Position numbers and translations under genes: made by a program. A DNA stretch of 64,000 nucleotides from an uncultured Actinomycetes bacterium (GTDB taxonomy: Bacteria; Actinomycetota; Thermoleophilia; UBA2241), in contig CAVVVA010000003.1 of the NCBI GenBank assembly GCA_963751565.1, positions 7,836-71,835 on the forward strand. Reading direction: 5' to 3'. Numbering within the stretch: position 1 is the first letter of the stretch; every line of letters starts with the position of its first letter. Below, one piece after another: positions 49,799 through 64,000 of the stretch. The notes beneath the pieces were generated by a model. The model was not told the DNA's origin. It was given only the letters and a program-made list of their open reading frames with translations, and made no database searches.

Positions 49799-51043
49799 AT
49801 GGCTGACTTCAAACCGGCTGACCTCTCGAGCTTCGTCATCGTCGAAGAAGCGCCCGCCGAAGGCCCCCCGGTGCGCATCGACGACACCACGCTGCGCGAC
49901 GGCGAGCAGACGGCCGGCGTGGTCTTCTCCAACCACGAGAAGATCCGCATCGCCAAGCTGCTGAACGAGGTCGGCGTGCACCAGATCGAAGTCGGCATCC
50001 CCGCCATGCTCGGCGACGAGAAGCAGGTCATCGCGCAGATCGTCGAGCTCGGCCTCAAGCCCTCGATCCTCGCCTGGAACCGGGCGGTCGTCGCCGACAT
50101 CCAGCACTCCCTCGACTGCGGCGTCGACGCCGTCGCGATCTCCATGTCGGCGAGCGACATCCACATCGAGCACAAGCTGGCCAAGTCGCGCCAGTGGGTG
50201 CTCGACCAGATCCGCGCCTGCGTGGCCTTTGCCAAGGAGCACGGCAAGTACGTCTCGGTCAACGCCGAGGACGCCTCGCGCGCCGACCTCGAGTTCCTGC
50301 TGCGCTTCGGCCAGGCGGCCAAGGACGAAGGCGCCGACCGCCTGCGCTTCTGCGACACGCTGGGCATCCTCGACCCGTTCGACACCTACAACGTGATCAG
50401 CTTCCTGGCGCGCCAGGGTCTCGAGATCGAGATGCACACGCACGACGACTTCGGCATGGCCACGGCCAACGCGCTGGCCGGCATCAAGGCGGGCGCGACC
50501 TACGTCAACACCACAGTCAACGGACTCGGCGAGCGGGCCGGCAACGCGGCCCTCGAAGAGGTCGTCATGGCTCTCAAGTTCATCGGCCACGTCGAGCTCG
50601 GCCTGCACACCTCGCGCTTTCGCGAGCTGTGCGAGTACGTGGCCGCCGCCTCGGCGCGCACCATCCCCGCCTGGAAGAGCATCGTCGGCACCAACGTCTT
50701 CGCCCACGAGTCCGGCATCCACGCCGACGGCGTCATCAAGAACCCGCTCAACTACGAGGCCTACGCGCCCGAGGACGTCGGCCTCGAACGGCAGATCGTG
50801 GTCGGCAAGCACTCGGGATCGCGCACGATCTACCGCAAGTTCCAGGAGTTCGGCATCGAGCTCTCCGACCGCGACGCCGACGAGATCCTGAAGATGGTGC
50901 GCCAGACGGCGGTCGAGCTCAAGCGGGCCCTGTTTTCCAAGGAGATCATGTACATCTACCAGGACTACATCGCGCGGCTCGGCGACGAGCTGCCCCTGCC
51001 GAGCGCCGCCGCGGCCCCGGCTGCGCCGGGCCGCGGGGCCTGA
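49799..51043 (+). CDS. nifV: NifV-like homocitrate synthase / Re-citrate synthase family (DRE-TIM)
   Basis: DTTLRDGEQTAGV, H.HDDFGMATAN, GLGERAGNA, FAHESGIH.DG, GKHSG; no LeuA regulatory domain. Confidence 0.8.
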   Translation: MADFKPADLSSFVIVEEAPAEGPPVRIDDTTLRDGEQTAGVVFSNHEKIRIAKLLNEVGVHQIEVGIPAMLGDEKQVIAQIVELGLKPSILAWNRAVVADIQHSLDCGVDAVAISMSASDIHIEHKLAKSRQWVLDQIRACVAFAKEHGKYVSVNAEDASRADLEFLLRFGQAAKDEGADRLRFCDTLGILDPFDTYNVISFLARQGLEIEMHTHDDFGMATANALAGIKAGATYVNTTVNGLGERAGNAALEEVVMALKFIGHVELGLHTSRFRELCEYVAAASARTIPAWKSIVGTNVFAHESGIHADGVIKNPLNYEAYAPEDVGLERQIVVGKHSGSRTIYRKFQEFGIELSDRDADEILKMVRQTAVELKRALFSKEIMYIYQDYIARLGDELPLPSAAAAPAAPGRGA

Positions 51044-51045
51044 CC

Positions 51046-52338
51046 GTGCCCGCCACCATCGCCGAGAAGATCATCGCCGCCCACGCGGGCGTCGAGTCGG
51101 TGGCGGCCGGGCAGATCGTGGTCGCGCTGGTCGACGTCGCCATCGCCCAGGACGGCACCGGACCGCTGGCCATCCAGCAGCTGCGCGACCTCGGGCAGGT
51201 GCGCGTCAAGGTGCCGACCGCGGTGTTCTTCATCGACCACGCGGCGCCGTCGCCGCGCGTCGAGCTCTCCAACGCCCATCAGCTCGTGCGCCGCTTCTGC
51301 GACGAGACGGGAGCGACGCTCTCCGACGTCGAGATGGGCGTCTGCCACCAGCGCGTGGCCGAATCGTACGCCAGACCGGGCGACCTCGTGATCGGCGCCG
51401 ACTCGCACACCTGCACCGCCGGCGCCCTGGCCGCCTTCGCCACCGGCATGGGCTCGACCGACGTCGCCATCGGCATGGCGACGGGGCAGACCTGGCTGCG
51501 CGTGCCCGCGACGCTGCGCATCGAGGTCGGCGGACGGTTTCCCGACGGCGTCACCGCCAAAGACCTCATCCTCACGATCATCGGCCGGCTCGGCGCCGAC
51601 GGCGCCACCTACGAGGCGCTCGAGTTCGGCGGTCCGGCCGTCGAGGCGCTGCCCATGCCCGAGCGGCTCACGCTGACCAACATGGCCGTCGAAGCGGGCG
51701 CCAAGGCCGGCCTCGTGGCAAGCGACGAGGTCACCAGGTCGTTCCTGGCCGCGCAGGGCCGCGAAGCCGACTACCGCACGGTGGCGCCCGACCCCGGCGC
51801 CGCCTACGAGCGCTCGCTGTCGTACATCGCCGACGAGCTCGTGCCGGTCGTCGCGGCGCCGCACACGGTCGACAACGTGCACCCGGCCGCGGAGCTCGCC
51901 GGCACGAAGGTCGATCAGGTCCTGATCGGCACCTGCACCAACGGCCGCCTCGACGACCTGCGCGCCGCGGCCCGGCTGCTGCGCGGCCGCCGCCGCGCGG
52001 CGCGCACCCGCCTGATCGTCACGCCGGCCTCGCGGGCCGTGTGGCGGGCCGCCGCCGACGAAGGGCTGCTGCAGGACTTCGTCGACGCGGGCGCCGTGGT
52101 CACCAATCCCGGCTGCGGCGCCTGTGTGGGGGTTCACCAGGGCATCCTCGCCGACGGCGAGGTCTGCGTGAGCACCGCCAACCGCAACTTCAAGGGCCGC
52201 ATGGGCAACGCCCAGGCCGCCATCTACCTCGCTTCGCCGCTCACGGCCGCCGCGGCGGCCGTCGCCGGCGAGATCGTCGACCCGCGCGAGCTGCTCGTCC
52301 CGGGCGAGCCGCCCACGGAAGGAGAGCAGCATGGCTAA
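51046..52338 (+). CDS. leuC: Isopropylmalate/homoaconitate dehydratase large subunit (LeuC/HacA type)
   Basis: [46 protein letters not shown]. Confidence 0.85.
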
Positions 52339-52846
52339 GCAGTACGACGCAGCGCCGCCGATGGTCATCGACCCGGCCAAGCGCTATGCCGCCACCATCT
52401 CGACCGGGCGCGGCGACATCGTCGTCGAGCTCTACGCCGACAAGGTGCCGGTCACGGTCAACAACTTCGTCGTGCTGGCCCGCGACGGCTACTACGACGG
52501 CGTCACGTTCCACCGCGTCATCGCGAACTTCATGGCCCAGACCGGCGACCCGACGGGTACCGGCCGCGGCGGCCCCGGCTACCGGTTCGCCGACGAGTTC
52601 GACCCGAGCCTGCGTCACGACGGCCCGGGCGTGCTCTCCATGGCCAACGCCGGGCCCGACACCAACGGTTCGCAGTTCTTCATCACCCACCGGGCCACGC
52701 CGCATCTCGACGGCAAGCACGCGGTGTTCGGCCGCGTCACCTCCGGCATGGACGTCGTCTTCTCGATCCCCGAGCGCGACCCCACGAGCGCCCGCGAGCC
52801 GGGCGTCGCGATGACCAGCGTGACCATCACCGAAAGCGACGCCTGA
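52331..52846 (+). CDS. Cyclophilin-type peptidyl-prolyl isomerase
   Basis: [54 protein letters not shown]. Confidence 0.95.
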
Positions 52847-52849
52847 CCG

Positions 52850-53380
52850 ATGCCCGTTCCCGGCGGCACAAGCGGTGTCCTGCGCGGGCGCGCCTGGACG
52901 TTCGGGAACGACATCTCGACCGACCAGATCGCCCCGGGCCGGCTGTTCCACCTGCGCACCGACCTGCCCGAGCTGGCCAAGCACGTCCTCGAAGACGAGA
53001 ACCCCGAGTTCGCCAAGCGCCTCAAGCCCGGCGACTTCGTGGTCGGCGGACGCAACTTCGGCCTCGGCTCGAGCCGCGAGCACGCGCCGCGCATCCTGAG
53101 GATCGCCGGCGCCGGCGCCGTGCTGGCCCAGTCGTTCGCGCGCATCTTCTTTCGCAACGCGATCAACGTGGGTCTGCCGGCGCTGACCTGCGACACCAGC
53201 GCCATCGAGCAGTGGGACGACCTCGAGGTCGATCTCGGCTCAGGCGAGGTGCGCGACCTGACCAGGGGCACCGTGGTGCCGTTCGCGCCGCTGCCGCCCG
53301 TGATGCTCAAGATCCTGTCCGACGGCGGCCTCGTCGAGCACTTTCGCAAGTACGGCGAGTTCCATCTGCCCGAGGGCTGA
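52850..53380 (+). CDS. leuD: Isopropylmalate/homoaconitate dehydratase small subunit (LeuD/HacB type)
   Basis: FGNDISTD.I.P, NFGLGSSREHA, SFARIFFRNAINVGLP. Confidence 0.85.
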   Translation: MPVPGGTSGVLRGRAWTFGNDISTDQIAPGRLFHLRTDLPELAKHVLEDENPEFAKRLKPGDFVVGGRNFGLGSSREHAPRILRIAGAGAVLAQSFARIFFRNAINVGLPALTCDTSAIEQWDDLEVDLGSGEVRDLTRGTVVPFAPLPPVMLKILSDGGLVEHFRKYGEFHLPEG

Positions 53381-53383
53381 CCT

Positions 53384-54382
53384 GTGACCTACCGCGTAAC
53401 GCTCATCCCCGGCGACGGCACAGGTCCCGAACTGACCGCCGCCCTCGAGACGGTGATCGCCGCCAGTGGCGTGCCGATCGCCTGGGAGCGCCACGACGCC
53501 GGCGCCGCGGTGATGGAGCGCCGCGGCACGCCGCTGCCCGACGAGGTCATCGCCTCGGTCAAGGCGACGAAGGTGGCCATGAAGGGGCCGGTCACGACGC
53601 CGGTGGGCGCGGGCTTTCGCTCCGTCAACGTGGCGCTGCGCAAGGCGCTCGACCTCTACGCCTGCGTGCGGCCGGCGAAGTCGCTCACCGGGGTGCCCAG
53701 CCGCTACACGGGCATCGATCTCGTGGTCGTGCGCGAGAACACCGAAGACCTGTACGCCGGCATCGAGCACCAGGTCACCCCCGACGCCGCCGAGTCCATC
53801 AAGATCATCACCAGGCGCGCCAGCGAGCGCATCGTGCGCTACGCCTTCGAGTACGCCCGCGCTCACGGCCGCCACAAGGTCACGGCCGTGCACAAGGCCA
53901 ACATCATGAAGCTCACCGACGGCCTGTTCCTGCGCACCGCGCGCGAGGTCGCCGAGTCCTACCCCGACATCGACTTCGAGGATCGCATCGTCGACAACCT
54001 GTGCCTGCAGCTCGTGCAGACGCCCGAGCTCTACGACGTGCTCGTTCTGCCCAACCTCTACGGCGACATCGTGAGCGACCTCTGCGCCGGTCTGATCGGC
54101 GGCCCCGGCGTCGCGCCGGGGGCGAACGTCGGCGCCGACGCCGCCGTGTTCGAGGCCGTGCACGGCAGCGGTTCCGACATCGCGGGGCGCGACATCGTCA
54201 ATCCCACCGCCTTCCTGCTGTCGGGCGTGCTCATGCTCGAGCACCTGGGCGAGGGCGCCGCGGCCGGGCGCGTCTACAACGCCGTGGCCGCGGTGATCGC
54301 CGACCGCCGGCAGGTGACCCGCGACCTGGGCGGCACGGCCGGCACGCAGGAGTTCGCCCGGGCGGTGGCCGCCCGGCTGTAG
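53384..54382 (+). CDS. Isocitrate/homoisocitrate/isopropylmalate dehydrogenase family protein
   Basis: [54 protein letters not shown] (Asp suggests NAD use). Confidence 0.92.
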
Positions 54383-54415
54383 CGTAGCCCACGCCACCTC
54401 GCAAAGGAGGCCCTT

Positions 54416-54712
54416 GTGCCCGCGTACCCTGAAGATCGCCGCTTCAACATTCACGCCACCCCCGAGATGATGGCCGGCGTCTATGCGAACTTCGCCAACG
54501 TCAGTCACTCCGACTACGAGTTCTCGCTCACCTTCATGCGGCTCGACCACGAGAACGAAAGCGACGAAGAGGTGAACGGCGTCGTGGTCTCGCGGGTCAA
54601 CATGTCGGCGCGTTTCATGAAGGAGCTGACCGAGGCGATGAACGACAACCTCGGCAAGTGGCAGGCCGGCGAGAACATCCGCAACCTGCCCGAGGCGCCC
54701 GACCACGGCTGA
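54416..54712 (+). CDS. DUF3467-like small protein
   Basis: GVYANFA.V.HS..EF.L.F and V.SRV.MS pattern; strong AAGGAGG. Confidence 0.7.
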   Translation: MPAYPEDRRFNIHATPEMMAGVYANFANVSHSDYEFSLTFMRLDHENESDEEVNGVVVSRVNMSARFMKELTEAMNDNLGKWQAGENIRNLPEAPDHG

Positions 54713-54800
54713 AAAGTCCGGCCGACACCGGCCCCGTTATTCTCGCGCAAAGAGAACGCATTCTCGAATGGGAGCGGGGGTTTTCGGCCGACCGAAGCGA

Positions 54801-54829
54801 TTGCCCGGACCAGTTCGCTTGGCTAGAAT
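54801..54829 (+). promoter_or_regulatory. Housekeeping sigma promoter for aor
   Basis: TTGCCC-N17-TAGAAT, flanked by short palindromes (GAGAA-CGCA-TTCTC upstream; GGTGCACC and AATCGATT downstream). Confidence 0.72.
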
Positions 54830-54924
54830 GGGGTGCACCAATCGATTCATCCGGGCCGCGCGGCACGCCATCCGGCGCGGCGCTCCCGCGAAGCGCGGGC
54901 ATGGCAACCTAGAGGGAGGGCGAT

Positions 54925-56703
54925 TTGGACTTCTACACGGGGAACGTGCTCAGGATCGACCTGAGTGCGGGTACCACTGAAGTCGAGCCGCTGAACATGG
55001 AGTGGGCGCGACTCTACGTCGGCGGCAAGGGTCTGATGCTGCGCTACTTGTGGGAGCTCACCGAGGCCGGCATGGACCCCTGGTCGCCCGAGAATCCGTT
55101 GATCGTCGCGCCGGGTCCGTTCGCCGGCACCAACGTCAGCACCTGCTCGCGCGTGGTCCTGGGTGGCAAGAGCCCGGCCAACGGCACCATCCTCGACAGC
55201 TACTGCGGCGGTTCGTTCGGCTCCACCCTCAAGTTCGCCGGCTACGACATGCTCATCGTCCAGGGCCGCGCGGCCGAGCTCACGGCCGTGCTTATCTCAG
55301 ACGGCGACGTGAGCCTGGTGCCGGCCGCCAAGTACGCAGGCATGCTGACGGCCGACATCGAAGCCGCGCTGCGCGCCGACTTCAACCCGCACATGACCTC
55401 GCTGTCGATCGGTCCCGCCGGTGAGCACAAGCTTCCCTGGGCCTGCGTGTCGAACGATCAGTATCACAAGGCCGGACGCGGCGGCACGGGCGCCCTGATG
55501 GGCTCCAAGAACTTGAAGGCGATCGCCGTGGCCGGCACCGGCCGCGTCGACGTCGGCGACGCCCGGGCGTTCCTCAAGGACATCGAACGCATCGACACCG
55601 ACTACATTCTCACCGACGCCAACTACTGGGTCCACGAAGAGGGCACCCCGATCCTCGTCGACGTCACCGACGGCGGCGGCTGCCAGCCCACCCGCAACTA
55701 CGCCGAAGGCACCTTCGAGGGAGCCGGCAAGATCAACTCGGAGTCGTTCCAGAAGATCCGCGTCAAGAAGCGCGCCTGCTACCAGTGCACGCTCGCCTGC
55801 CGCAACTTCCACCGCATCAACGACGTCGAGGGCGAAGGTCCCGAGTACGAGACGATCGCACTCTGCGGCTCCAACTGCGGGGTCGACGACATCGCCGCCC
55901 TCATGGAGTTCAATCACCTCTGCGACGAGTTCGGCCTCGACACCATCTCCACGGGCAACGTGCTCGCTCTGGCGATGGACATGACCGAGAAGGGCATCCA
56001 CGACTTCGGCGTGCGCTTCGGCGACGTCGACTCGTACCTCAAGATCCCCGAGCAGCTCGCCCTGCGCACCGGCATCGGCGCCGAGCTGGCCCTGGGCACG
56101 CGCGCCCTGGCCGCGAAGTACGGCCACCCCGAGCTCGGCATGCAGGTCAAAGGCCTCGAGGCGCCCGGCTACGACCCACGAGGCTCGTTCGGCATGAGCA
56201 TCGCCTACGCCACCTCCGACCGCGGCGCGTGCCACATGCGTTCGTTCCCGGTCGGCGTCGAGGTCGTCGAAGGCACCATGCCGGCCGACACGCTCGACGA
56301 AAGCAAGGCCACGTTCAACATCGACTTCCAGAACCACTACGCCTTCAAGTTCTGCGGCATCTGGTGCGACTTCTGGGCGATCGACTACGAGCAGATGGGC
56401 CTGCTCATGAAACACCTCTGGAAGCGTGAGGTCTCCGAAGCCGAGCTCACGCAGGTCGGCGAGCGCGTCTGGAACCTGGGACGCCTCTTCAACCTGCGCG
56501 AGGGGTACAGCCGGGCCGACGACAACGTGCCCGAAGCCTGGCTCGAGAAGCCGTTCACCAAGGGCGTCTCGGCCGGCAAGACGATCGGCACCGCGCGGTT
56601 CAACGAGGTCCTGTCCCAGTACTACGCCCTGCGTGGCTGGGACGAGAACGGTGTCCCTACCGAGGCCAAGCTCACCGAGCTCGGCATCGACGTGCGGCTC
56701 TAG
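54925..56703 (+). CDS. aor: Tungsten-type aldehyde:ferredoxin oxidoreductase
   Basis: LRIDLS, KSP, LKFAGYD, IGPAGE, AGRGG.GA.MGSKNLKAI, C..C..AC, GPEYET, GLDTISTG, DRGACH, YY..RGWD..GVP. Confidence 0.95.
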   Translation: MDFYTGNVLRIDLSAGTTEVEPLNMEWARLYVGGKGLMLRYLWELTEAGMDPWSPENPLIVAPGPFAGTNVSTCSRVVLGGKSPANGTILDSYCGGSFGSTLKFAGYDMLIVQGRAAELTAVLISDGDVSLVPAAKYAGMLTADIEAALRADFNPHMTSLSIGPAGEHKLPWACVSNDQYHKAGRGGTGALMGSKNLKAIAVAGTGRVDVGDARAFLKDIERIDTDYILTDANYWVHEEGTPILVDVTDGGGCQPTRNYAEGTFEGAGKINSESFQKIRVKKRACYQCTLACRNFHRINDVEGEGPEYETIALCGSNCGVDDIAALMEFNHLCDEFGLDTISTGNVLALAMDMTEKGIHDFGVRFGDVDSYLKIPEQLALRTGIGAELALGTRALAAKYGHPELGMQVKGLEAPGYDPRGSFGMSIAYATSDRGACHMRSFPVGVEVVEGTMPADTLDESKATFNIDFQNHYAFKFCGIWCDFWAIDYEQMGLLMKHLWKREVSEAELTQVGERVWNLGRLFNLREGYSRADDNVPEAWLEKPFTKGVSAGKTIGTARFNEVLSQYYALRGWDENGVPTEAKLTELGIDVRL

Positions 56704-56735
56704 CGGCTGACACGCGGCCAGAAAGGGAAACTCAC

Positions 56736-57239
56736 ATGCCCCACGTGATGATCAGCAGCAAGAAGTGCACCGGCTGCCACATGTGCGAACTCGGCTGTTC
56801 GGCGTGGCACGAAGGCGGCTTTCAACCGTCGCGCGCTCGCCTGTTCGCCGACGTCAACCCGACCACGGCGGTGATCAAGGGCCACACCTGCCTGCAGACC
56901 GGCTGCGCCAAGTGCCAGGAGGCCTGCCCCAACGACGCCATCGTGACGCGCCAGATCACGGTCACGCCCGCCGGTGTGTTCCCGAGCAAGGAGAAGGTCG
57001 GCGAGTCGGTCACCGGCGTCGTGCTCGTCGTCGACGAAGAGCTGTGCACCAACTGCGGCGACTGCTACGACGTCTGCCCGTACGGCGTGATCCACGAGCA
57101 TCCCGAGCGCAAGGTGGCCTTCAAGTGCGACCTGTGCGACGGCGACCCGCAGTGCATCGCCTTCTGTCAGAATCAGTACGTCCTGGCGGTCGACCTCAAG
57201 GTCGACAAGGCCGACAAGGCGCTGACGGCGAAGGCCTGA
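56736..57239 (+). CDS. 4Fe-4S dicluster electron-transfer subunit (AOR partner)
   Basis: CTGCHMCELGC, CLQ..C..C..ACP, CTNCGDCYDVCP, KCDLC.GDPQC...C. Confidence 0.92.
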   Translation: MPHVMISSKKCTGCHMCELGCSAWHEGGFQPSRARLFADVNPTTAVIKGHTCLQTGCAKCQEACPNDAIVTRQITVTPAGVFPSKEKVGESVTGVVLVVDEELCTNCGDCYDVCPYGVIHEHPERKVAFKCDLCDGDPQCIAFCQNQYVLAVDLKVDKADKALTAKA

Positions 57240-57388
57240 CCAACCCTGTGCGCCGAGCGAAGGGGGGGCGGCAGACGCCGCTCCGCCTTCGCCTGCCGGT
57301 CGGCTTCACCTCGTTTCTCATATGTCCGTGGCGGATCGGCCCACTTCCTCAAAGGAACCCTCCCTCTCTGCTCTGGTACCATGTGAAG

Positions 57389-58081
57389 GTGATGATTCGC
57401 CGCCTCCCGCCCGAAGCCCTTCCCGCGTTCGTGGCCGTCGTCGAAGGCCGTCACAGCGTGCGCCGCTTTACGAGCGACCCTGTGCCGCGCGGCGAGGTGC
57501 GCGAGATGGTGCGTCTGGCCACCCTGGCGGCCAACGCCGGCAACGCCCAGCCCTGGCGCTTCGTGGCGGTCGACGACGTCCGGCTGCTCGCCGACCTGCG
57601 GCGCGCCGTCGACGAGCGCATCGACGAGATCGCGCGCTGGCCCGAGGTCGAGGCGGCCGGTCTCGCGGGCGAGACCGGCCGCCTGCACGGCTACTCCAGC
57701 TTCTTCGCCGACGCGCCGCTTTCGATCGCCGTCTGCGCGCTGCCCTACGAGTCGCTCGCCGACCGGCTGCTCGCGCTGCGGGGCGTGTCGCTCGAGGAGC
57801 ACGACCGGCTGCGCGCGCGGCCCGACCTGCAGAGCGTCGGCGCCGCCGTGCAGCTGCTCATCACCGCGGCCCACGCCATGGGCTACGGCGCCTGCTGGCT
57901 GAGCGCGCCGGTGATCGCCGCGCCCCGGCTCGAAGAGCTGCTCGGCATCGAAGAGCCGGCGCACCTGGTGGCGATCGTCGCCGTCGGCGTTCCGGCAAGC
58001 CCTCCGCGGGGCACCGGGCGGCAGCCGCTCGACGAGATCCTGCGATTCGTGCCCGGCGACCCCGTCGCCGGAGAGCCCTGA
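57389..58081 (+). CDS. Nitroreductase family flavoprotein, first gene of the pyl operon
   Basis: RHSVRRF, A..AGNAQPWRFV, QSVGAAVQ.L..AAHAMGYGACW. Extended -10 TGGTACCAT ends 6 nt before the GTG; 3-nt gap to pylB. Confidence 0.9.
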   Translation: MMIRRLPPEALPAFVAVVEGRHSVRRFTSDPVPRGEVREMVRLATLAANAGNAQPWRFVAVDDVRLLADLRRAVDERIDEIARWPEVEAAGLAGETGRLHGYSSFFADAPLSIAVCALPYESLADRLLALRGVSLEEHDRLRARPDLQSVGAAVQLLITAAHAMGYGACWLSAPVIAAPRLEELLGIEEPAHLVAIVAVGVPASPPRGTGRQPLDEILRFVPGDPVAGEP

Positions 58082-58084
58082 CCG

Positions 58085-59164
58085 GTGAACCCCGCGCCGC
58101 ACAGCATCGCGACCATCGTGGAGCAGGCTCTGGCCGGGCGTCCGCCATCGCTCGGCGAGATCCGCGCGCTGCTTGCCATCGAGCGGCGCGACGAGGCCGC
58201 TCTGCTGTTCGACGCCGCCTCCGAGCTGCGCCGCCGGCGGTTCGGCGACGCCGTGTTCCTCTACGGCTTCGTCTACTTCTCGACCTGGTGTCGCAACGAC
58301 TGCACGTTCTGCCTGTACCGCCGGGCCAATCCGCAGAGCCCGCGCTACCGCAAGTCGCTCGACGAGGTCGTCGACATAGCGAGCGGCCTCGCCGCCTCGG
58401 GCGTGCACCTGATCGATCTGACCATGGGCGAGGACCCGCTCTACTTCGCCCGCGGCGAGTTCGACGGGCTCGTCGCGCTCGTGCGGGCCGTCAAGCAGGC
58501 GACGGGTCTGCCGGTGATGATCTCGCCCGGCGTGGTGTCGGCTCAGGTGCTCGAGGCGCTGCGCGACGCCGGCGCCGAGTGGTATGCCTGCTACCAGGAG
58601 ACGCACGCGCCCGACAGGTATGCCGGGCTGCGCATGGGGCAGAGTTTCGCGGAGCGCGCCGCGGCGCGCAGCGCCGCGGCGCGCCTCGGCATGCTGGTGG
58701 AGGACGGCATGCTGCTCGGCGTGGGGGAGACCCTCGACGAGCGCGCGCTGACCGTGGCGGCCATGCGCGACGAGCCGGTCGAGCAGGTCCGGGTGATGAC
58801 CTTCGTGCCGCAACGCGGCACGCCGCTCGCCGACCTGCCGCCTGCCGACCGCCTGGGCGAGCTCGTCACGATCGCCACCATGCGTCTCGCCATGCCCGAA
58901 CGGCTGATCCCGGCCTCGCTCGACGTCGACGGCATCGCCGGCCTCGAGCCGCGCATCGCGGCCGGCGCCAACGTCGTCACGTCGCTCGTGCCGCCCTCGC
59001 TCGGGCTGGCCGGCGTGTCGCAGTCCGAGCTCGACATAGACGAGGGACTGCGCACCGCGGCCGAGGTGACCACCAGGCTGTCGACGATGGGGCTGCGCGC
59101 CGCGACCGCCGCCGAGTACTCGGCCTGGGTCACGGCCGCCCGGGCGGAACCGGCGCCGGCGTGA
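58085..59164 (+). CDS. pylB: Methylornithine synthase PylB (radical SAM)
   Basis: VFLYGFVYFSTWCRNDCTFC (CxxxCxxC), HLIDLTMGEDP, WYACYQETH, QVRVMTFVPQ.GTP, LIPASLDVDG, GANVVTS..PP..GLAGV. Confidence 0.95.
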   Translation: MNPAPHSIATIVEQALAGRPPSLGEIRALLAIERRDEAALLFDAASELRRRRFGDAVFLYGFVYFSTWCRNDCTFCLYRRANPQSPRYRKSLDEVVDIASGLAASGVHLIDLTMGEDPLYFARGEFDGLVALVRAVKQATGLPVMISPGVVSAQVLEALRDAGAEWYACYQETHAPDRYAGLRMGQSFAERAAARSAAARLGMLVEDGMLLGVGETLDERALTVAAMRDEPVEQVRVMTFVPQRGTPLADLPPADRLGELVTIATMRLAMPERLIPASLDVDGIAGLEPRIAAGANVVTSLVPPSLGLAGVSQSELDIDEGLRTAAEVTTRLSTMGLRAATAAEYSAWVTAARAEPAPA

Positions 59165-59168
59165 CGCC

Positions 59169-61292
59169 ATGAGGCTGGCCGTCGTCGGGGGCAAGCTGCA
59201 AGGCACCGAGGCCGCCTACCTGGCCGGCGAGGCCGGCTACGAAGTCGTCCTGATCGACCGGCGGCCCGACCGCCCGGCGGCCGGCCTGGCCGCCGAGGTC
59301 CACGTGTTCGACGTCACCACCGACCCGGCGCGCGCCCGCGAGGTGCTCATGACCTGCGACGCCGTCCTGCCGGCCTGCGAGGACCAGCGCGCGCTCGAGT
59401 TCCTGACCGCGTTCGTGCCCAGGATGGGCCTGCCGCTGCTCTTCGACCTCGACGCCTACGCGGTGACTTCGTCGAAACTGCGTTCGAACGCGCTGTTCGA
59501 GCGGCTCGACGTGCCGCGCCCGCTGCCCTGGCCGCGCTGCGGCTTTCCGGCGGTGGTCAAGCCGAGCGTCGGCAGCGGCAGCGCGGGCGTGCGGCTCGTG
59601 TCGTCCGAGCCCGGCCTTGCCCTGGCGCGCGCCGCGCTTGCCGCCCAGGGCGCCCAGGCCGTGGTCGAGGAGTTCGTCGCCGGGCCGTCGCTGTCGGTCG
59701 AGGTGATCGCTCTCGGCGGCGAGGTGCTGACGTTGCTGCCGACCTGGCTCGAGTTCGACGCCGCCTACGACTGCAAGCGCGTGGTCGCGCCGGTCGACGG
59801 AGCTGAGGGCGCGACGGTGAACGGAGCTGAGGGCGAGGCGGCTGGCCGAGCCGGAGCCGGCGGACTGACGGCGAGCCCCGGCCGCTCAGCGCCGCCCACG
59901 GCGGTGAACGTCGCGACGCTGGCGGCGCTCGACGCGGCCGCCCGGCGCCTGGCCGAGGGCGTCGCGCTCGCCGGGGTGATGGACGTCGAGGTGATGGTCT
60001 CGGCCGACGGCACGCCCAAGGTGATCGAGATCGACGCGCGGCTGCCGAGCCAGACACCCGCCGCCGTGTTCCACGCAAGCGACGTGAACATCGTCGCGCT
60101 GCTCGCCGAGACGTTCGCCGGCGGCAGCCCGCCGGCCGTCGCCGCCGGGGCCCGGCGCGGCGCGGTGTACGAGCACGTGCTGGTCGAGGACGGCAGGGTC
60201 GAGGTGCTCGGCGAGCACATCGTCGGCGCGGCGGGTCCGCTGCGGCGCTGCGACGGCCTGTTCGGCGCCGACGTGGTGCTCACCGATCGTCCCGAGTCCG
60301 GCGCCTCGCGGGAGCGCTGGGTCGCGGTGCTCATGACGCGCGGCGCGACGGCGGCGGCGGCCCGCTCGCGGGCCGCCGCCGCCGTCGCACGCCTCGCCGA
60401 CGAGCACGGTCTCGAGCTCGTGCCCGAGTCGGAGCCCGGGCTCGCGTCCGATCGCCAGCCGGGGCGCGCCGTGACGCGTCTCGTCGAAAGCGACGTGCGC
60501 GCCCTGACCGCGCAGCTCGACGAGGTCGAGCGGGCGCTCGTGGCGCTCACGGGCTGCGACTTCGTGGCGCTGGCGGCCAGGGCCTGCGGCGTGGGCGAGG
60601 GCGTCGCGCGCGACGCCCTCGCCCACGCCGCCGTCGCCGTCGTGCCGATCACCAGCGGTGAAGGTCTCATCCCGGGCTTCGTCGACTGCGTGGCGGCGAT
60701 CTGCGGCCGCCTCGGCTGCCGGGCGGCGCGCGTGACCGGCGCCACCGACGTCGCCGGGTTCGCCGAAGCGCTTCTCGGCGGTGACGACCTCGTCTTTGCC
60801 GCCGACGACCGCACGTTCCTGGCTTTCGAGCTCGCCCGTCACGCGGTGGCCGACGACGATCCCTGCACCGCGCACGCCTACGTGGCGGCGCTCGACGCCG
60901 CCGCGGGCAATGGCGGCGTCGCCGGCAAGCCGGTCCTGGTCATCGGCCTCGGTCCGGTCGGCCGGGCGGCGGCGGCGCGCCTGGTCGAGCTGGGCGCCAC
61001 GGTGCTCGTTTGCGAGCTCGACGAGGCGCGGCTCGCCGCGGTCGCGGGCGCGCTGCCGGTCACGCCCGTCGCCTTGGCCGACGGCCTCTCGCGCTGCCGG
61101 CTCGTGCTCGACGCCACGCCGGCGCCCGATCTCATCGACGCCGGCTGGGTCGGCTCCGACGGCGTCGTCTGCTCTCCCGGCCTGCCGCCCGGCGTCACGG
61201 CGGCGGCCGCCCGGGCGCTGGGCGAGCGGCTCGTGCACGAGCCGCTCGCCCTCGGCGTCGCCGTCATGGCCGTGCGCGCCCTGCTCGGCTGA
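59169..61292 (+). CDS. pylC: PylC (3-methylornithine--L-lysine ligase, ATP-grasp) continuing in frame into PylD
   Basis: VVGGKLQGTEAAYLA, D..AY..TSSKL.S, KP..GSGS, GPSLSVEV, YDCKRV, IEIDARLPSQTP, GEHI; no in-frame stop before the PylD region. Confidence 0.92.
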   Translation: MRLAVVGGKLQGTEAAYLAGEAGYEVVLIDRRPDRPAAGLAAEVHVFDVTTDPARAREVLMTCDAVLPACEDQRALEFLTAFVPRMGLPLLFDLDAYAVTSSKLRSNALFERLDVPRPLPWPRCGFPAVVKPSVGSGSAGVRLVSSEPGLALARAALAAQGAQAVVEEFVAGPSLSVEVIALGGEVLTLLPTWLEFDAAYDCKRVVAPVDGAEGATVNGAEGEAAGRAGAGGLTASPGRSAPPTAVNVATLAALDAAARRLAEGVALAGVMDVEVMVSADGTPKVIEIDARLPSQTPAAVFHASDVNIVALLAETFAGGSPPAVAAGARRGAVYEHVLVEDGRVEVLGEHIVGAAGPLRRCDGLFGADVVLTDRPESGASRERWVAVLMTRGATAAAARSRAAAAVARLADEHGLELVPESEPGLASDRQPGRAVTRLVESDVRALTAQLDEVERALVALTGCDFVALAARACGVGEGVARDALAHAAVAVVPITSGEGLIPGFVDCVAAICGRLGCRAARVTGATDVAGFAEALLGGDDLVFAADDRTFLAFELARHAVADDDPCTAHAYVAALDAAAGNGGVAGKPVLVIGLGPVGRAAAARLVELGATVLVCELDEARLAAVAGALPVTPVALADGLSRCRLVLDATPAPDLIDAGWVGSDGVVCSPGLPPGVTAAAARALGERLVHEPLALGVAVMAVRALLG
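60471..61292 (+). CDS. pylD: PylD (3-methylornithyl-N6-L-lysine dehydrogenase), either the C-terminal domain of a fusion or a separate gene from GTG 60471
   Basis: (M)TRL...D N-terminus, VVPITSGEGLI.GF, DVAGF, ADD..F, VIGLGPVG, DATP, PG.P.G, HEPL.LGVAVM. Confidence 0.9.
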   Translation: MTRLVESDVRALTAQLDEVERALVALTGCDFVALAARACGVGEGVARDALAHAAVAVVPITSGEGLIPGFVDCVAAICGRLGCRAARVTGATDVAGFAEALLGGDDLVFAADDRTFLAFELARHAVADDDPCTAHAYVAALDAAAGNGGVAGKPVLVIGLGPVGRAAAARLVELGATVLVCELDEARLAAVAGALPVTPVALADGLSRCRLVLDATPAPDLIDAGWVGSDGVVCSPGLPPGVTAAAARALGERLVHEPLALGVAVMAVRALLG

Positions 61293-61392
61293 TCCGCCTC
61301 AGCTTCTGCCGCCGTTGGCCGGTGCTAGGCTTTCGTCCCTGGCGCACCGGTGCGGCTGGTCCTGAAGTGTGTCTTCCGAGGAGGGCGGGCGT

Positions 61393-61686
61393 ATGGTGAC
61401 CTACATCCTGCTGATGAACCTCACCGACAAGGGCATCGTCGACGTGAAGAACTCGCCGAACCGCGTCGCCGACGCCATGAAGCTCTGGGAGTCGATGGGC
61501 GGCAAGACGATCGGCGTGTACATGACCATGGGCGAGTACGACTTCGTGGCCATCGGCGAAGGCCCCGACGATCAGGCGGCGGCGGCATTCGGGCTCGCGC
61601 TGGGCGCCACCGGCACGGTCCGCACGACGTCACTCAAGGCTTTCAGCGTTGAGGAGGCCAAGCGGATCGTCGCGTCTCTGCCGTAG
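61393..61686 (+). CDS. GYD domain protein
   Basis: Y..L.N.T.KG, P.R, GGK, Y.TMGEYDFV, G.VRT.SL.AF. GAGGAGGG upstream. Confidence 0.88.
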   Translation: MVTYILLMNLTDKGIVDVKNSPNRVADAMKLWESMGGKTIGVYMTMGEYDFVAIGEGPDDQAAAAFGLALGATGTVRTTSLKAFSVEEAKRIVASLP

Positions 61687-61744
61687 GCCGCCGCCATCGC
61701 AGCCTGACAACCCCGCGGCCGGTGCGCCACGCCCCGCGGACGCT

Positions 61745-61773
61745 TTGCCGCTCGCGCTCAGATGCGCTAGCCT
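61745..61773 (+). promoter_or_regulatory. Promoter for pylT
   Basis: TTGCCG-N17-TAGCCT, ending 12 nt before the tRNA 5' end. Confidence 0.65.
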
Positions 61774-61785
61774 TGGGACCGGCGC

Positions 61786-61858
61786 GGGGGGTCGATCGGA
61801 AGGATCAGCGCGGACTCTAAATCCGCGTAGAGGGGTGTAACTCCCCTACTCCCCGCCA
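61786..61858 (+). tRNA. pylT: tRNA-Pyl (anticodon CUA, amber decoding)
   Basis: Acceptor GGGGGGT/ACTCCCC, G discriminator and CCA; 1-nt spacer; D arm GATC-GGAAG-GATC; 6-bp anticodon stem CGCGGA/TCCGCG with loop CTCTAAA; 3-nt variable loop; T arm AGGGG-TGTAACT-CCCCT lacking TTC. Confidence 0.96.
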
Positions 61859-61944
61859 GCACTCCCGGCCGCCACCCTTCTCCGCCGCAACCCTTCTCCG
61901 CCACCCCCCGCCACGAAGAGCAGCCGGCAGGGCGGGCGCCGTCT

Positions 61945-64000
61945 TCAGCTCCAGCGCTTGATGGCCGCGTCCGACAGGCGGTCGGCGGCCTCGTTCAAGC
62001 GCAGGCCGACGACGTCGAGCCGGCGCAGCAGCTCGCGAGACTTCATGACCTCCATGGTGAGCTTGCCGCGAAAGAGCCGGCCGAGCTCGACGTCGTACTG
62101 GCGTCGTATCTCGTTGGCGAACTTCTTCGACGCCAGAACGGTCCTCAGGTCCGTGGGGTCTTTCGCGATGGCCTGCACGGCCAGCTGCAGGTCGTCGACA
62201 CCGCTCGCGGTGGCGTCGAGAAGGCCGATGTAGGCAGTGGTGGCCTCGATGTCGTACAGGTCCCACTCGCGCACGAAGTCGCGCAGATTGTCGAGCACGT
62301 CGTCGATCGAGCGCGACAGGCGAAAGAGGTCCTCGCGGTCGATGGGCGCGACGAGCACCCCCGAGAGCCGGGTCACGAGCTCGGCTCTCATCGTGTCGCC
62401 GCGATGCTCGATTTGTGCGATCCGCTGGTGAGCTTCGCCTGAGGCGATCTTGCCCTTTGCCACTGAGCGCGCCAGCCGGCAGGCGGCGGCGACCTCGGCA
62501 AGCTGGGCCTCGAGGGTGACGACGACGGCCAGGCGGCTGTGCAGACAGTCCTGGACGGCGCTGTCCACGGTCAGGAAGAGATGGTCTTCGCCGAGCAGTT
62601 CGAGGAGCCCGCTGCGCCGGAACACGTCGAGCACCGAGGAGCCCACGCGGGCAAAGACGACGTCGCGGCCGCTGTCGCGCAGGTTGTGGACCAGCCGCAG
62701 GAGCGTCTCGGCCGCGGTCACATCGAGGTCGGTGGTCGACTCCATGTTCCAGACCACGACGCGCGGCGTGGGCTGTGTGACGCTCAGAAGCTGGTTCAAG
62801 CGGTCGACGGCGAATCCGGCGTTGGCGAAGAAGAGCTGTCCGTCCAGGCGAAAGATGAGCAGGCCGGGGAAGGTCTCGTTCTGCGGGTGGCGGCCCATGT
62901 CGCTGTACGTGTGCTCGTTGGGCACGCGGCCCAGCACCGCGGTGTGCGGCCGGCTCGAGCGATAGATCAGGATGGCGAGCGAGAGACCCACCGCGATGCC
63001 CAGACCGGGCAGCACGCCGAGCACCAGTACTCCGAGCAGAGCGGCCAGCGCCGGCACGGCGTCGCCGGCGCGGACGCTCGCAAAGCGCCGCAGCACCTTC
63101 ACGTCGATCAGCCCCCACACGGCGCGCACCACGACGGCTCCCAGGATCGCTTCGGGGAGATCGTGGCCGACGCGCGTGACCGAGAGCACCACCAGAAGCA
63201 TGACCGCGGCGCCGATCAGGCCGGTGACCTGCGACCGGGCGCCGCTCGTGTCGCTCAGCGCCGAGCCCGACAGGCCTCCGCTGACCACGATGCCGCCGAA
63301 CGCCCCGGAGCCGATGTTGGAGAGGCCGAGGGCGATCAGCTCCTGGTTGGCGTCGATCTCGTAGCTGTGCCGGACGGCGAAGGTCCGGGCGCCGCTCAAG
63401 GCCTCGGCGTAGACCACGATGGCGATGCCGGCGGCGCTCGGCAGCAGGCCGAGCACGTCGGCGGCGTGGATGTCGGGCAGGCGAGGCACCGGAAGGCCGC
63501 TCGGGATCGTGCCGACCATGGTGACCCCGTGTGCGCCAAGGTGGAAGGCGGCGGCGACGACGATGCCGAGCACGAGCACCGTCAGCGCCGCCGGGATCCT
63601 CGACCAACGCCGCACGGCAAACAGAGAGACGAGCGCGACGGCGCTCACGAGGGCGGTAGCGAGGCTCGTCTCGTCGAGGTGGGTGAGGTCCGTCCAGACG
63701 AGCTGGAAGAAGTTGGCCGATGTCGGCACGCGCAGGCCGAGGAGCTTGGGCACCTGGCGGGCGATGATCGTGAGGGCCAGGCCGATGACGTAGCCGGTGA
63801 TCACCGGACGGGCGAGGAACTCCGAGATGAAGCCGAGCCGGGCGATGCCGGCGATCAGCATGAACAGACCGACGAGGACGGCGACCATGGCCACCAGCGC
63901 GAGATCCTTCGTCGGGCTGGTCGCGCCGTGGGCGGCCACGACCGCCGCCGCCATGATGGCGGCGGTCGAGGTGGGCGAGCAGATGAGCTGACGCGACGTG
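61945..64000 (-). CDS. SulP family anion transporter with STAS domain and C-terminal DUF47/PhoU-like domain (5' end outside the window)
   Basis: RLGFI..FL..PVI.G, DANQELIALG..N, GARSQ, LFFANA STAS; then EHRGD..R, PIDREDLF.LS..IDDV.D. Confidence 0.9.
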   Translation of the reverse strand, partial: TSRQLICSPTSTAAIMAAAVVAAHGATSPTKDLALVAMVAVLVGLFMLIAGIARLGFISEFLARPVITGYVIGLALTIIARQVPKLLGLRVPTSANFFQLVWTDLTHLDETSLATALVSAVALVSLFAVRRWSRIPAALTVLVLGIVVAAAFHLGAHGVTMVGTIPSGLPVPRLPDIHAADVLGLLPSAAGIAIVVYAEALSGARTFAVRHSYEIDANQELIALGLSNIGSGAFGGIVVSGGLSGSALSDTSGARSQVTGLIGAAVMLLVVLSVTRVGHDLPEAILGAVVVRAVWGLIDVKVLRRFASVRAGDAVPALAALLGVLVLGVLPGLGIAVGLSLAILIYRSSRPHTAVLGRVPNEHTYSDMGRHPQNETFPGLLIFRLDGQLFFANAGFAVDRLNQLLSVTQPTPRVVVWNMESTTDLDVTAAETLLRLVHNLRDSGRDVVFARVGSSVLDVFRRSGLLELLGEDHLFLTVDSAVQDCLHSRLAVVVTLEAQLAEVAAACRLARSVAKGKIASGEAHQRIAQIEHRGDTMRAELVTRLSGVLVAPIDREDLFRLSRSIDDVLDNLRDFVREWDLYDIEATTAYIGLLDATASGVDDLQLAVQAIAKDPTDLRTVLASKKFANEIRRQYDVELGRLFRGKLTMEVMKSRELLRRLDVVGLRLNEAADRLSDAAIKRWS

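Follow-up and report, generated by a model that had tools for sequence, protein, structure and literature searches.

The biosynthesis and tRNA genes of a pyrrolysine system in a peat-dwelling Thermoleophilia bacterium

The stretch of DNA studied here, referred to as the window, comprises 64,000 nt from an uncultured Actinomycetes bacterium and corresponds to C3:7836-71835 (contig CAVVVA010000003.1 of assembly GCA_963751565.1). It carries the genes pylB, pylC, pylD and pylT, which very probably represent the biosynthesis and tRNA half of a complete, vertically inherited pyrrolysine (Pyl) system in a member of the Thermoleophilia living in peat. An earlier interpretation made from the letters alone, without database searches (the sequence-only reading), had assigned the range 57389-61858 to a Pyl locus; this holds from pylB to pylT, but the first 693 nt (57389-58081) are a nitroreductase-family gene.

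In the established pathway, PylB converts lysine to 3-methyl-D-ornithine, PylC ligates this to the epsilon-amine of a second lysine, and PylD oxidises the product, which cyclises to pyrrolysine. Judging from tested family membership, the PylB, PylC and PylD of the window would make pyrrolysine in this way. A split synthetase, PylSn plus PylSc, would charge tRNA-Pyl(CUA), and the charged tRNA is predicted to decode the UAG that occurs once in frame in each of six genes, one mttB and five mtbB, the products of which would hand methyl groups to corrinoid proteins. Insertion of Pyl would have to be limited by regulation or by competition from release factor 1 (RF1), and UAG suppression could be contained through regulated expression, possibly aided by the position of pylT behind the biosynthetic operon.

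The pyl genes and their tRNA

The forward-strand gene pylB (58085-59164) encodes a radical S-adenosylmethionine (SAM) lysine mutase, or methylornithine synthase, of 359 aa. It scores 447.9 bits on TIGR03910 over profile positions 5-347 of 347, where the cut-off is 348.2; the cut-offs quoted for TIGR models are the NCBI curated equivalog thresholds. Its scores on the biotin synthase and HydE families are far lower (BioB 91 bits, HydE 102 bits), and in a tree of PylB proteins the sequence groups with the PylB genes of pyl loci. The coding sequences for PylC (59169-60470) and PylD (60471-61292) follow on the same strand. PylC, the ATP-grasp 3-methylornithine--lysine ligase, matches TIGR03909 with 319.7 bits (cut-off 248.3) in two stretches between residue 3 and about residue 420, and is interrupted near residues 210-250 by an insertion of about 40 aa rich in Gly and Ala. 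PylD, the dehydrogenase, matches TIGR03911 with 181.9 bits (cut-off 150.05) over residues 436-701 and PylD_N (PF21455) with 83 bits. The sequence-only reading was thus right in recognising PylB, PylC and PylD in operon order, all three being above their equivalog cut-offs; the grouping with biotin synthase or HydE that it had considered was not seen when its proposed comparison with hidden Markov models was carried out. Its statement that the genes match the high GC of the host also agrees with the GC content at third codon positions (GC3) of pylB, which at 0.94 is like that of the neighbouring genes.

The gene pylT (61786-61858, forward strand) consists of 70 nt plus an encoded CCA, and is identified by ARAGORN, by its fold and by covariation. 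Of the two tRNAs that ARAGORN reports in the window, one is this 73-nt tRNA-Pyl, with anticodon cta. The sequence folds into a cloverleaf of -35 kcal/mol (z = -3.44), equalled by 1 of 200 shuffles, with an acceptor stem of 7 bp, a single nucleotide (C8) ahead of the D arm, a D stem of 4 bp and a D loop of 5 nt. The anticodon loop reads CUCUAAA, the T loop reads UGUAACU and has no TTC, and the discriminator is G. Hence the description in the sequence-only reading of a 73-nt CUA tRNA with a 1-nt spacer between acceptor and D arms, a 5-nt D loop and no TTC is fully borne out. Its 6-bp anticodon stem is also found, but a possible seventh pair (G23-U43) means that the variable loop, given there as 3 nt, has either 3 or 2 nt. 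The discriminator G and the pair G1:C72, which are identity elements of tRNA-Pyl, are both present.

Covariation was assessed in an alignment of 26 tRNA-Pyl genes (17 distinct): that of the window, 18 from actinobacterial loci and 7 from other phyla. Two calls were excluded, L114 (75 nt long) and L095 (archaeal). In 99% of cells the bases pair, and compensatory changes are found in 10 of 23 pairs, a level matched by 0 to 1 of 500 shuffles. The genes from actinobacterial loci are 73 nt long, compared with 72 nt for the aligned Firmicutes and Dehalococcoidales genes, and the additional nucleotide sits between the D and anticodon stems. The window's pylT is identical to that in the loci of four relatives. 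The general tRNA model of Rfam misses pylT, both at the gathering score and at E <= 10; this is to be expected, as it is usual for tRNA-Pyl, and provides no argument against the identity of the gene.

pylT may be transcribed together with pylBCD. A scan of 56600-62100 for promoters and terminators found no sigma-70-like site and one terminator-like site, no more than in shuffles; such a scan is uninformative for an actinobacterium. The sequence directly 3' of pylT is variable: an alternative contig, C16, begins exactly at the last base of the gene, while in one peat sequencing run positions 61858 and 61884 are separated by 1011 nt of other sequence, and the 3' end of pylT may be a hot spot for insertions. 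At position 61758, 28 nt upstream of pylT, one base is missing in the contigs of all four peat runs compared, which reflects either a strain difference or an error in the window consensus.

The synthetase genes, for which the sequence-only reading had proposed a search, were both found in the genome, beyond the range it gave and beyond the window itself. PylSn (TIGR03912, 124.1 bits, cut-off 51.15) is encoded 2.4 kb past the window end and PylSc (TIGR02367, 295.6 bits, cut-off 178.15) on contig C16, about 6.5 kb past it, corresponding to 4.6 kb and 8.7 kb downstream of pylT respectively. PylSn was detected twice with equal score, once on C3 shortly after the window end and once on C16. This is because C16:1-6661 corresponds to C3:69693-76336 (98.7% identity): both contigs assemble the same part of the genome, and the pyl locus carries on along C16. 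The Pyl system of this genome is therefore complete.

The operon order of pylC and pylD is as anticipated, but in the window they form a single uninterrupted open reading frame (ORF) of 707 aa (59169-61292), as the GTG at 60471 that starts pylD in relatives is here in frame with pylC. The balance of evidence tips slightly towards an assembly or consensus error, a one-base indel in the sequence of an organism that in reality has separate, overlapping pylC and pylD genes. The two are separate in all 67 informative relatives, that is in 18 of 18 genome loci and in all 49 metagenome loci with the junction covered (the other 16 of 65 being uninformative), and each of the best 120 homologues listed for the 707-aa protein covers only 45-62% of it. 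The closest PylC (P0001, 96% identical and unfused) is 432 aa long; its gene stops at the TGA within a GTGA motif, the GTG of which is the start codon of pylD. Just upstream of the junction the window has one base more than the P0001 gene, which brings the pylD GTG into frame. Furthermore, the near-identical alternative contigs in the assembly provide a setting for a mixed consensus, and the exact 40-nt junction string has no match in metagenome contigs. The stretch ahead of the junction, however, also differs from P0001 by several substitutions, implying a fast-evolving tail and no simple homopolymer slip, and one Joint Genome Institute (JGI) protein (P0123, 766 aa) is fused as well, though its linker looks out of frame. 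A read-through fusion may in any case be tolerated, as the TAG that ends pylC is in frame with pylD in three relatives. Among contigs of four peat runs over 58000-62000 no indel is listed, but no listed piece spans 60290-60620. In the three relatives with the shared frame (L056, L057 and L060), read-through by Pyl-tRNA might yield a PylC-PylD fusion.

Methyltransferase targets and the ambiguity of UAG

The search for methylamine methyltransferase genes with in-frame TAG that the sequence-only reading had suggested was successful for mttB and mtbB and failed for mtmB. There are 25 matches to the MttB family in the genome, one of which has an in-frame TAG; read as Pyl, this gene scores 676.5 bits on TIGR02369 (cut-off 525), and its TAG aligns with the non-standard residue X334 of a solved trimethylamine methyltransferase (7xcl_A). 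Five mtbB genes each have one in-frame TAG, all within one conserved motif, and the two that were scored on TIGR02368 reach 518.5 and 430.5 bits (cut-off 369.1). An MtmB-like gene has no TAG and no NCBIfam match at E <= 1e-10. A RamA-like corrinoid activase is present (C2:346746). About twenty further genes of the MttB superfamily, at C2:332-344 kb, on C5 and C7 and elsewhere, lack TAG and on sequence grounds would constitute a large repertoire of non-Pyl methyltransferases, a kind known for quaternary amines.

UAG retains its role as a stop codon. RF1 is present (491.6 bits, cut-off 423.25), and TAG ends 584 of 1528 called genes (about 38%), with TGA ending 865 and TAA 79, according to a crude GC3-filtered gene calling that covers only 61% of the genome; in the window, 17 of the 40 genes called stop at TAG. 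The codon is thus ambiguous and has not been reassigned. Genome-wide reassignment of UAG to Pyl, reported for some archaea (cited in PMC13695967), was considered and does not apply, given the retention of RF1 and the number of genes ending in TAG. In two of the mtbB genes (C5:434732-436132 and C9:8176-9588) an internal Pyl TAG is combined with a terminal TAG, beyond which the frame reaches another stop 263 and 78 codons later, respectively.

A crude genome-wide search for TAG codons with coding-like sequence on either side returned 100 candidates, including the mttB and all five mtbB genes. Most of the others are adjacent genes lying in one frame, so the scan cannot define the pyrroproteome. 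Some of the coding-like sequence flanking a TAG occurs in repeated gene copies, at C1:~10800 and C9:~38075 and at C12:~2857 and C13:~7333, with identical context within each pair; these could be genes of mobile elements in which a TAG separates two ORFs, or additional candidates for Pyl insertion.

Spread, surroundings and alternative explanations

The distribution of PylB, scored as present at E <= 1e-60, was studied in a class-level sample of 400 genomes from only 12 families, a number in keeping with a class as small as the Thermoleophilia. It is present in 72 of the 79 genomes of the window's own family, including 10 of 10 in its own genus, and in 9 of 61 genomes of one sister family, while none of the 260 genomes of the ten other families in the class contains it. 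PylSc is found in 80 of 88 own-family genomes. In a phylum-wide sample of 400 genomes, PylB was detected in one genome besides the window's own. The PylB tree that the sequence-only reading had proposed (a quick, unrooted maximum-likelihood tree of 79 rows, from which six loci with matches shorter than 300 aa and the window's duplicate row were dropped) places all 32 actinobacterial rows in one clan, with a support of 95 in the Shimodaira-Hasegawa-like approximate likelihood ratio test (SH-aLRT). The neighbours of this clan are three Firmicutes rows (Thermincola and one metagenome-assembled genome, MAG; SH-aLRT 89), and the next group consists of two archaeal rows and one Acutalibacteraceae row (SH-aLRT 98). 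As the tree is unrooted, no donor is claimed.

The arrangement of the locus is similarly conserved. Followed from the window into its continuation, the full order is nitroreductase gene, pylB, pylCD, a gene for a GYD-domain protein, pylT, a SulP-type transporter gene on the reverse strand, a beta-lactamase-family gene and pylSn, followed by GrpB and radical SAM genes (both reverse), a corrinoid protein gene, a MarR gene (reverse), a YceI-like gene and pylSc (reverse). Of the 21 loci scanned for tRNAs, 19 have pylT after pylD, and the other two are short contigs; pylSn lies downstream in 17 of 18 actinobacterial loci, and pylSc is on the opposite strand in all 11 with a flank of sufficient length. 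In other phyla (46 loci) the genes are usually arranged as pylSc-pylB-pylC-pylD-pylSn, all on one strand. The layout of nitroreductase, pylB, pylC, pylD, sometimes the GYD gene, pylT, a variable stretch, pylSn, corrinoid protein gene and opposite-strand pylSc is hence specific to the actinobacterial clade. Upstream, a set of core genes (49799-57239, forward strand, identified by family scans) recurs in unchanged order 5' of pylB in the loci of 16 relatives, within the reach of their flanks. This conservation of gene order and chromosomal position implies long residence, in agreement with the sequence-only reading, which had suggested as much; the presence of PylB in most family genomes, the shared flanking genes and the GC3 of pylB all bear this out. 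To judge from these genomic patterns, the Pyl trait is old and vertically inherited in this family.

The assembly is 2.79 Mb in 21 contigs, with a completeness of 92.4%, a contamination of 4.46% and a GC content of 69-72% on each contig. The window includes housekeeping genes for lysyl-tRNA synthetase (LysRS), arginyl-tRNA synthetase (ArgRS), Ddl, NadB and formate-tetrahydrofolate ligase and a ClpB-like gene. Among the best 120 homologues listed for LysRS only two are named, and both belong to a Thermoleophilia bacterium (90% and 74% identity). The closest PylB loci, in a collection of contigs with one genome per species, are 23 records at 59-80% identity, all labelled Actinomycetota, Actinomycetes or Thermoleophilia bacterium; identity to every non-actinobacterial locus is at most 55%. 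Both results support the actinobacterial, Thermoleophilia-like host that had been proposed. That this host is an anaerobe, as was also proposed, is only plausible: a search of the 92%-complete genome detected no haem-copper oxidase, but a gene for a cytochrome bd oxidase is there, and the presence of an aldehyde:ferredoxin oxidoreductase gene in the window is consistent with a predicted anaerobic or microaerobic life. Acetogenesis as a sink for the methyl groups was dropped from consideration, as a search of the same 92%-complete genome for acetyl-CoA synthase (PF03598) was negative. Matching DNA occurs in 20 public sequencing runs, comprising 19 peat metagenomes and one anaerobic digester, with no RNA run among those listed.

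Several observations weigh against a complete and functioning system. The fused pylCD ORF has no counterpart in any of the 67 relatives, and could mark either an assembly error or a first step of decay. TAG is also the stop codon of pylSc, of two of the target genes (mtbB1 and mtbB3) and of the GYD gene, and no closer back-up stop protects TAG-ending genes in general, the median distance to the next in-frame stop being 45 codons for genes ending in TAG and 35 for those ending in TGA; this implies that uncontrolled suppression would be costly. The use of monomethylamine is doubtful, as the MtmB-like gene has neither a TAG nor an NCBIfam match. The fused ORF and the very high frequency of TAG terminators would also suit a decaying relic in which the genes remain after Pyl insertion has ceased, as would the joint loss of PylB, PylSc and the nitroreductase in three nearly complete own-family genomes (G002, G014 and G110; completeness 93-98%). 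Such a relic is nevertheless very unlikely, as the five protein genes are all intact and score above curated cut-offs, pylT is unchanged in four relatives, and in each of six methyltransferase genes one TAG is preserved at the catalytic position between intact frames; without Pyl all six genes would be dead.

That the contig was mis-binned from a member of the Firmicutes or Desulfobacterota, or that the locus was recently acquired on a mobile element, is harder still to credit. The proximity of the actinobacterial PylB clan to Firmicutes sequences is the one feature in favour, and it fits an old transfer between phyla. The housekeeping genes with named Thermoleophilia homologues lie in the same 64-kb window as the pyl genes, GC is uniform (0.69-0.72) across all 21 contigs, and PylB is closer to actinobacterial loci than to any others. 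A recent arrival is further contradicted by the shared chromosomal place in 16 relatives, and the scan of surrounding genes revealed neither an integrase nor a transposase, as the sequence-only reading had remarked of the flanks of the locus. A vertically inherited system of the Thermoleophilia therefore remains the preferred interpretation.

The nitroreductase-family gene at 57389-58081 (forward strand) ends 3 nt before pylB. Its product, a BluB-like flavoprotein, scores 115 bits on PF00881, and its best solved relative is 3eo8, described as a "BluB-like flavoprotein" (68.6 bits). The name BluB (5,6-dimethylbenzimidazole synthase) was rejected for it, as it reaches only 60 bits on TIGR02476, for which the cut-off is 150. 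The gene lies 5' of pylB in 15 of 18 actinobacterial loci and in none of the 46 loci of other phyla. In the class-level sample it is found in 64 of 79 own-family genomes, directly upstream of pylB in 58 of these, and in no genome of any other family; 11 genomes have PylB without it. The nitroreductase is thus a family-specific operon partner of pylB rather than a known pyl gene, and on this genomic evidence may have a role in Pyl synthesis or corrinoid supply. A more elaborate proposal holds that pylT, at the 3' end of the nitroreductase-pylBCD operon, is transcribed only together with Pyl synthesis, which would keep the ambiguity of UAG in check, and that the flavoprotein is a new accessory factor, for example one reducing the iron-sulphur cluster of PylB or supplying the corrinoid cofactor of the Pyl enzymes. 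The accessory role is suggested by a putative translational coupling of the nitroreductase to pylB and by its loss along with the pyl genes in three genomes, yet the proposal as a whole is considered rather improbable.

Between pylD and pylT lies the gene for the 97-aa GYD-domain protein (61393-61686, forward strand; PF08734, 95.8 bits), found at the same place in 3 of 18 relatives' loci. Beyond pylT, a gene for a SulP-STAS-DUF47 transporter, identified with Pfam and not a pyl gene, lies on the reverse strand at 61945-64000 and continues past the window end. The interval between pylT and pylSn differs among relatives, which have a beta-lactamase-family gene, a SulP gene, both, or nothing found with the queries used. 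The upstream core comprises genes for homocitrate synthase, the large and small subunits of a homoaconitase-family enzyme with a cyclophilin gene between them, an isocitrate/homoisocitrate dehydrogenase-family protein, DUF3467, the aldehyde:ferredoxin oxidoreductase and a 4Fe-4S ferredoxin. The homocitrate synthase scores 521 bits on TIGR02660 (cut-off 463), and the genes of its stretch (49799-54379) are conserved in relatives. If they make 2-oxoadipate for lysine, a pathway to the Pyl precursor adjoins the pyl operon, but they could equally serve the elongation of another 2-oxoacid.

Relation to known pyrrolysine systems

The occurrence of Pyl in this phylum is already known; the novelty lies in the layout of the locus, which is specific to the clade, and in the fixation of the trait across the family. 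Guo et al. (2022; PMC9630628) report, in the part of the paper available, PylRS genes in two Actinobacteria among 81 bacterial genomes, a count repeated by a 2025 review. Ellenbogen et al. (2023; PMC10805028) report, in text likewise available in part, that some Actinobacteriota MAGs from thawing peatland express mttB and mtbB encoding Pyl; the words pylS, pylB and pylT are absent from the main text of that article, which does describe the truncation of mttB and mtbB at amber codons. The locus layout, pylT, the spread through the family and the use of TAG are not described in the available portions of these two papers, supplements aside. Two of the closest PylB loci (77-79% identity) are on records of peat MAGs labelled Actinomycetota bacterium, and the isolate name of one matches a genus named in the accessible text of PMC10805028, where the habitat is also peat; the peat Actinobacteriota of that study therefore very probably belong to the same lineage as the window. 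NCBI already applies the name PylC to proteins of Actinomycetota and Thermoleophilia MAGs. Literature searches combining pyrrolysine with Thermoleophilia, Actinobacteriota or Actinomycetota, or Actinobacteria with mttB, gave nothing further on this lineage, supplements aside. The sequence-only reading, which knew of no characterised Pyl system in the lineage, was hence literally correct but overstated the novelty, as actinobacterial Pyl genes are in print, to go by the portions of the two papers cited above.

These findings extend natural expansion of the genetic code to a high-GC Gram-positive lineage, in which it is family-wide and chromosomally fixed (72/79) rather than a stray transfer. 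They provide a genomic basis for the reported expression of Pyl-type trimethylamine and dimethylamine methyltransferases by peat Actinobacteriota. In this habitat, a source of methane, such bacteria would compete for methylamines with methylotrophic methanogens. The clade also represents a natural test case for the tolerance of UAG ambiguity where TAG is among the commonest stops, and its divergent set of PylSn, PylSc and tRNA-Pyl, with the extra nucleotide in the tRNA core, could interest builders of orthogonal translation pairs.

Desulfitobacterium hafniense and Acetohalobium arabaticum are taken here as the type examples of bacterial pyl clusters, and the comparison loci of other phyla included Thermincola, Sporomusa, Syntrophaceticus and Desulfobacteraceae. 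The systems of Firmicutes and Desulfobacterota likewise comprise these five proteins, PylS again being divided into PylSn and PylSc. They share the odd tRNA-Pyl cloverleaf and the Pyl-type mttB and mtbB targets, and they too retain RF1 and TAG as a common stop. They differ in their usual order of pylT, pylSc, pylB, pylC, pylD and pylSn on one strand, whereas here pylT comes after pylD, and pylSn and pylSc lie 4.6 and 8.7 kb further on, the latter on the other strand. The nitroreductase gene before pylB, the Gly/Ala-rich insert in PylC and one more nucleotide in the tRNA core also set the present locus apart. In archaea, PylS is fused or occurs without PylSn, and TAG is rare as a stop in those that have the system. 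The archaeal pylTSBCD clusters of Methanosarcina and Methanomassiliicoccales share the pathway and type of tRNA with the locus described here, and the Pyl position of its MttB is that of the archaeal 7xcl. By contrast, PylS is split in the peat bacterium, TAG ends 38% of its called genes, and the system would operate without methanogenesis.

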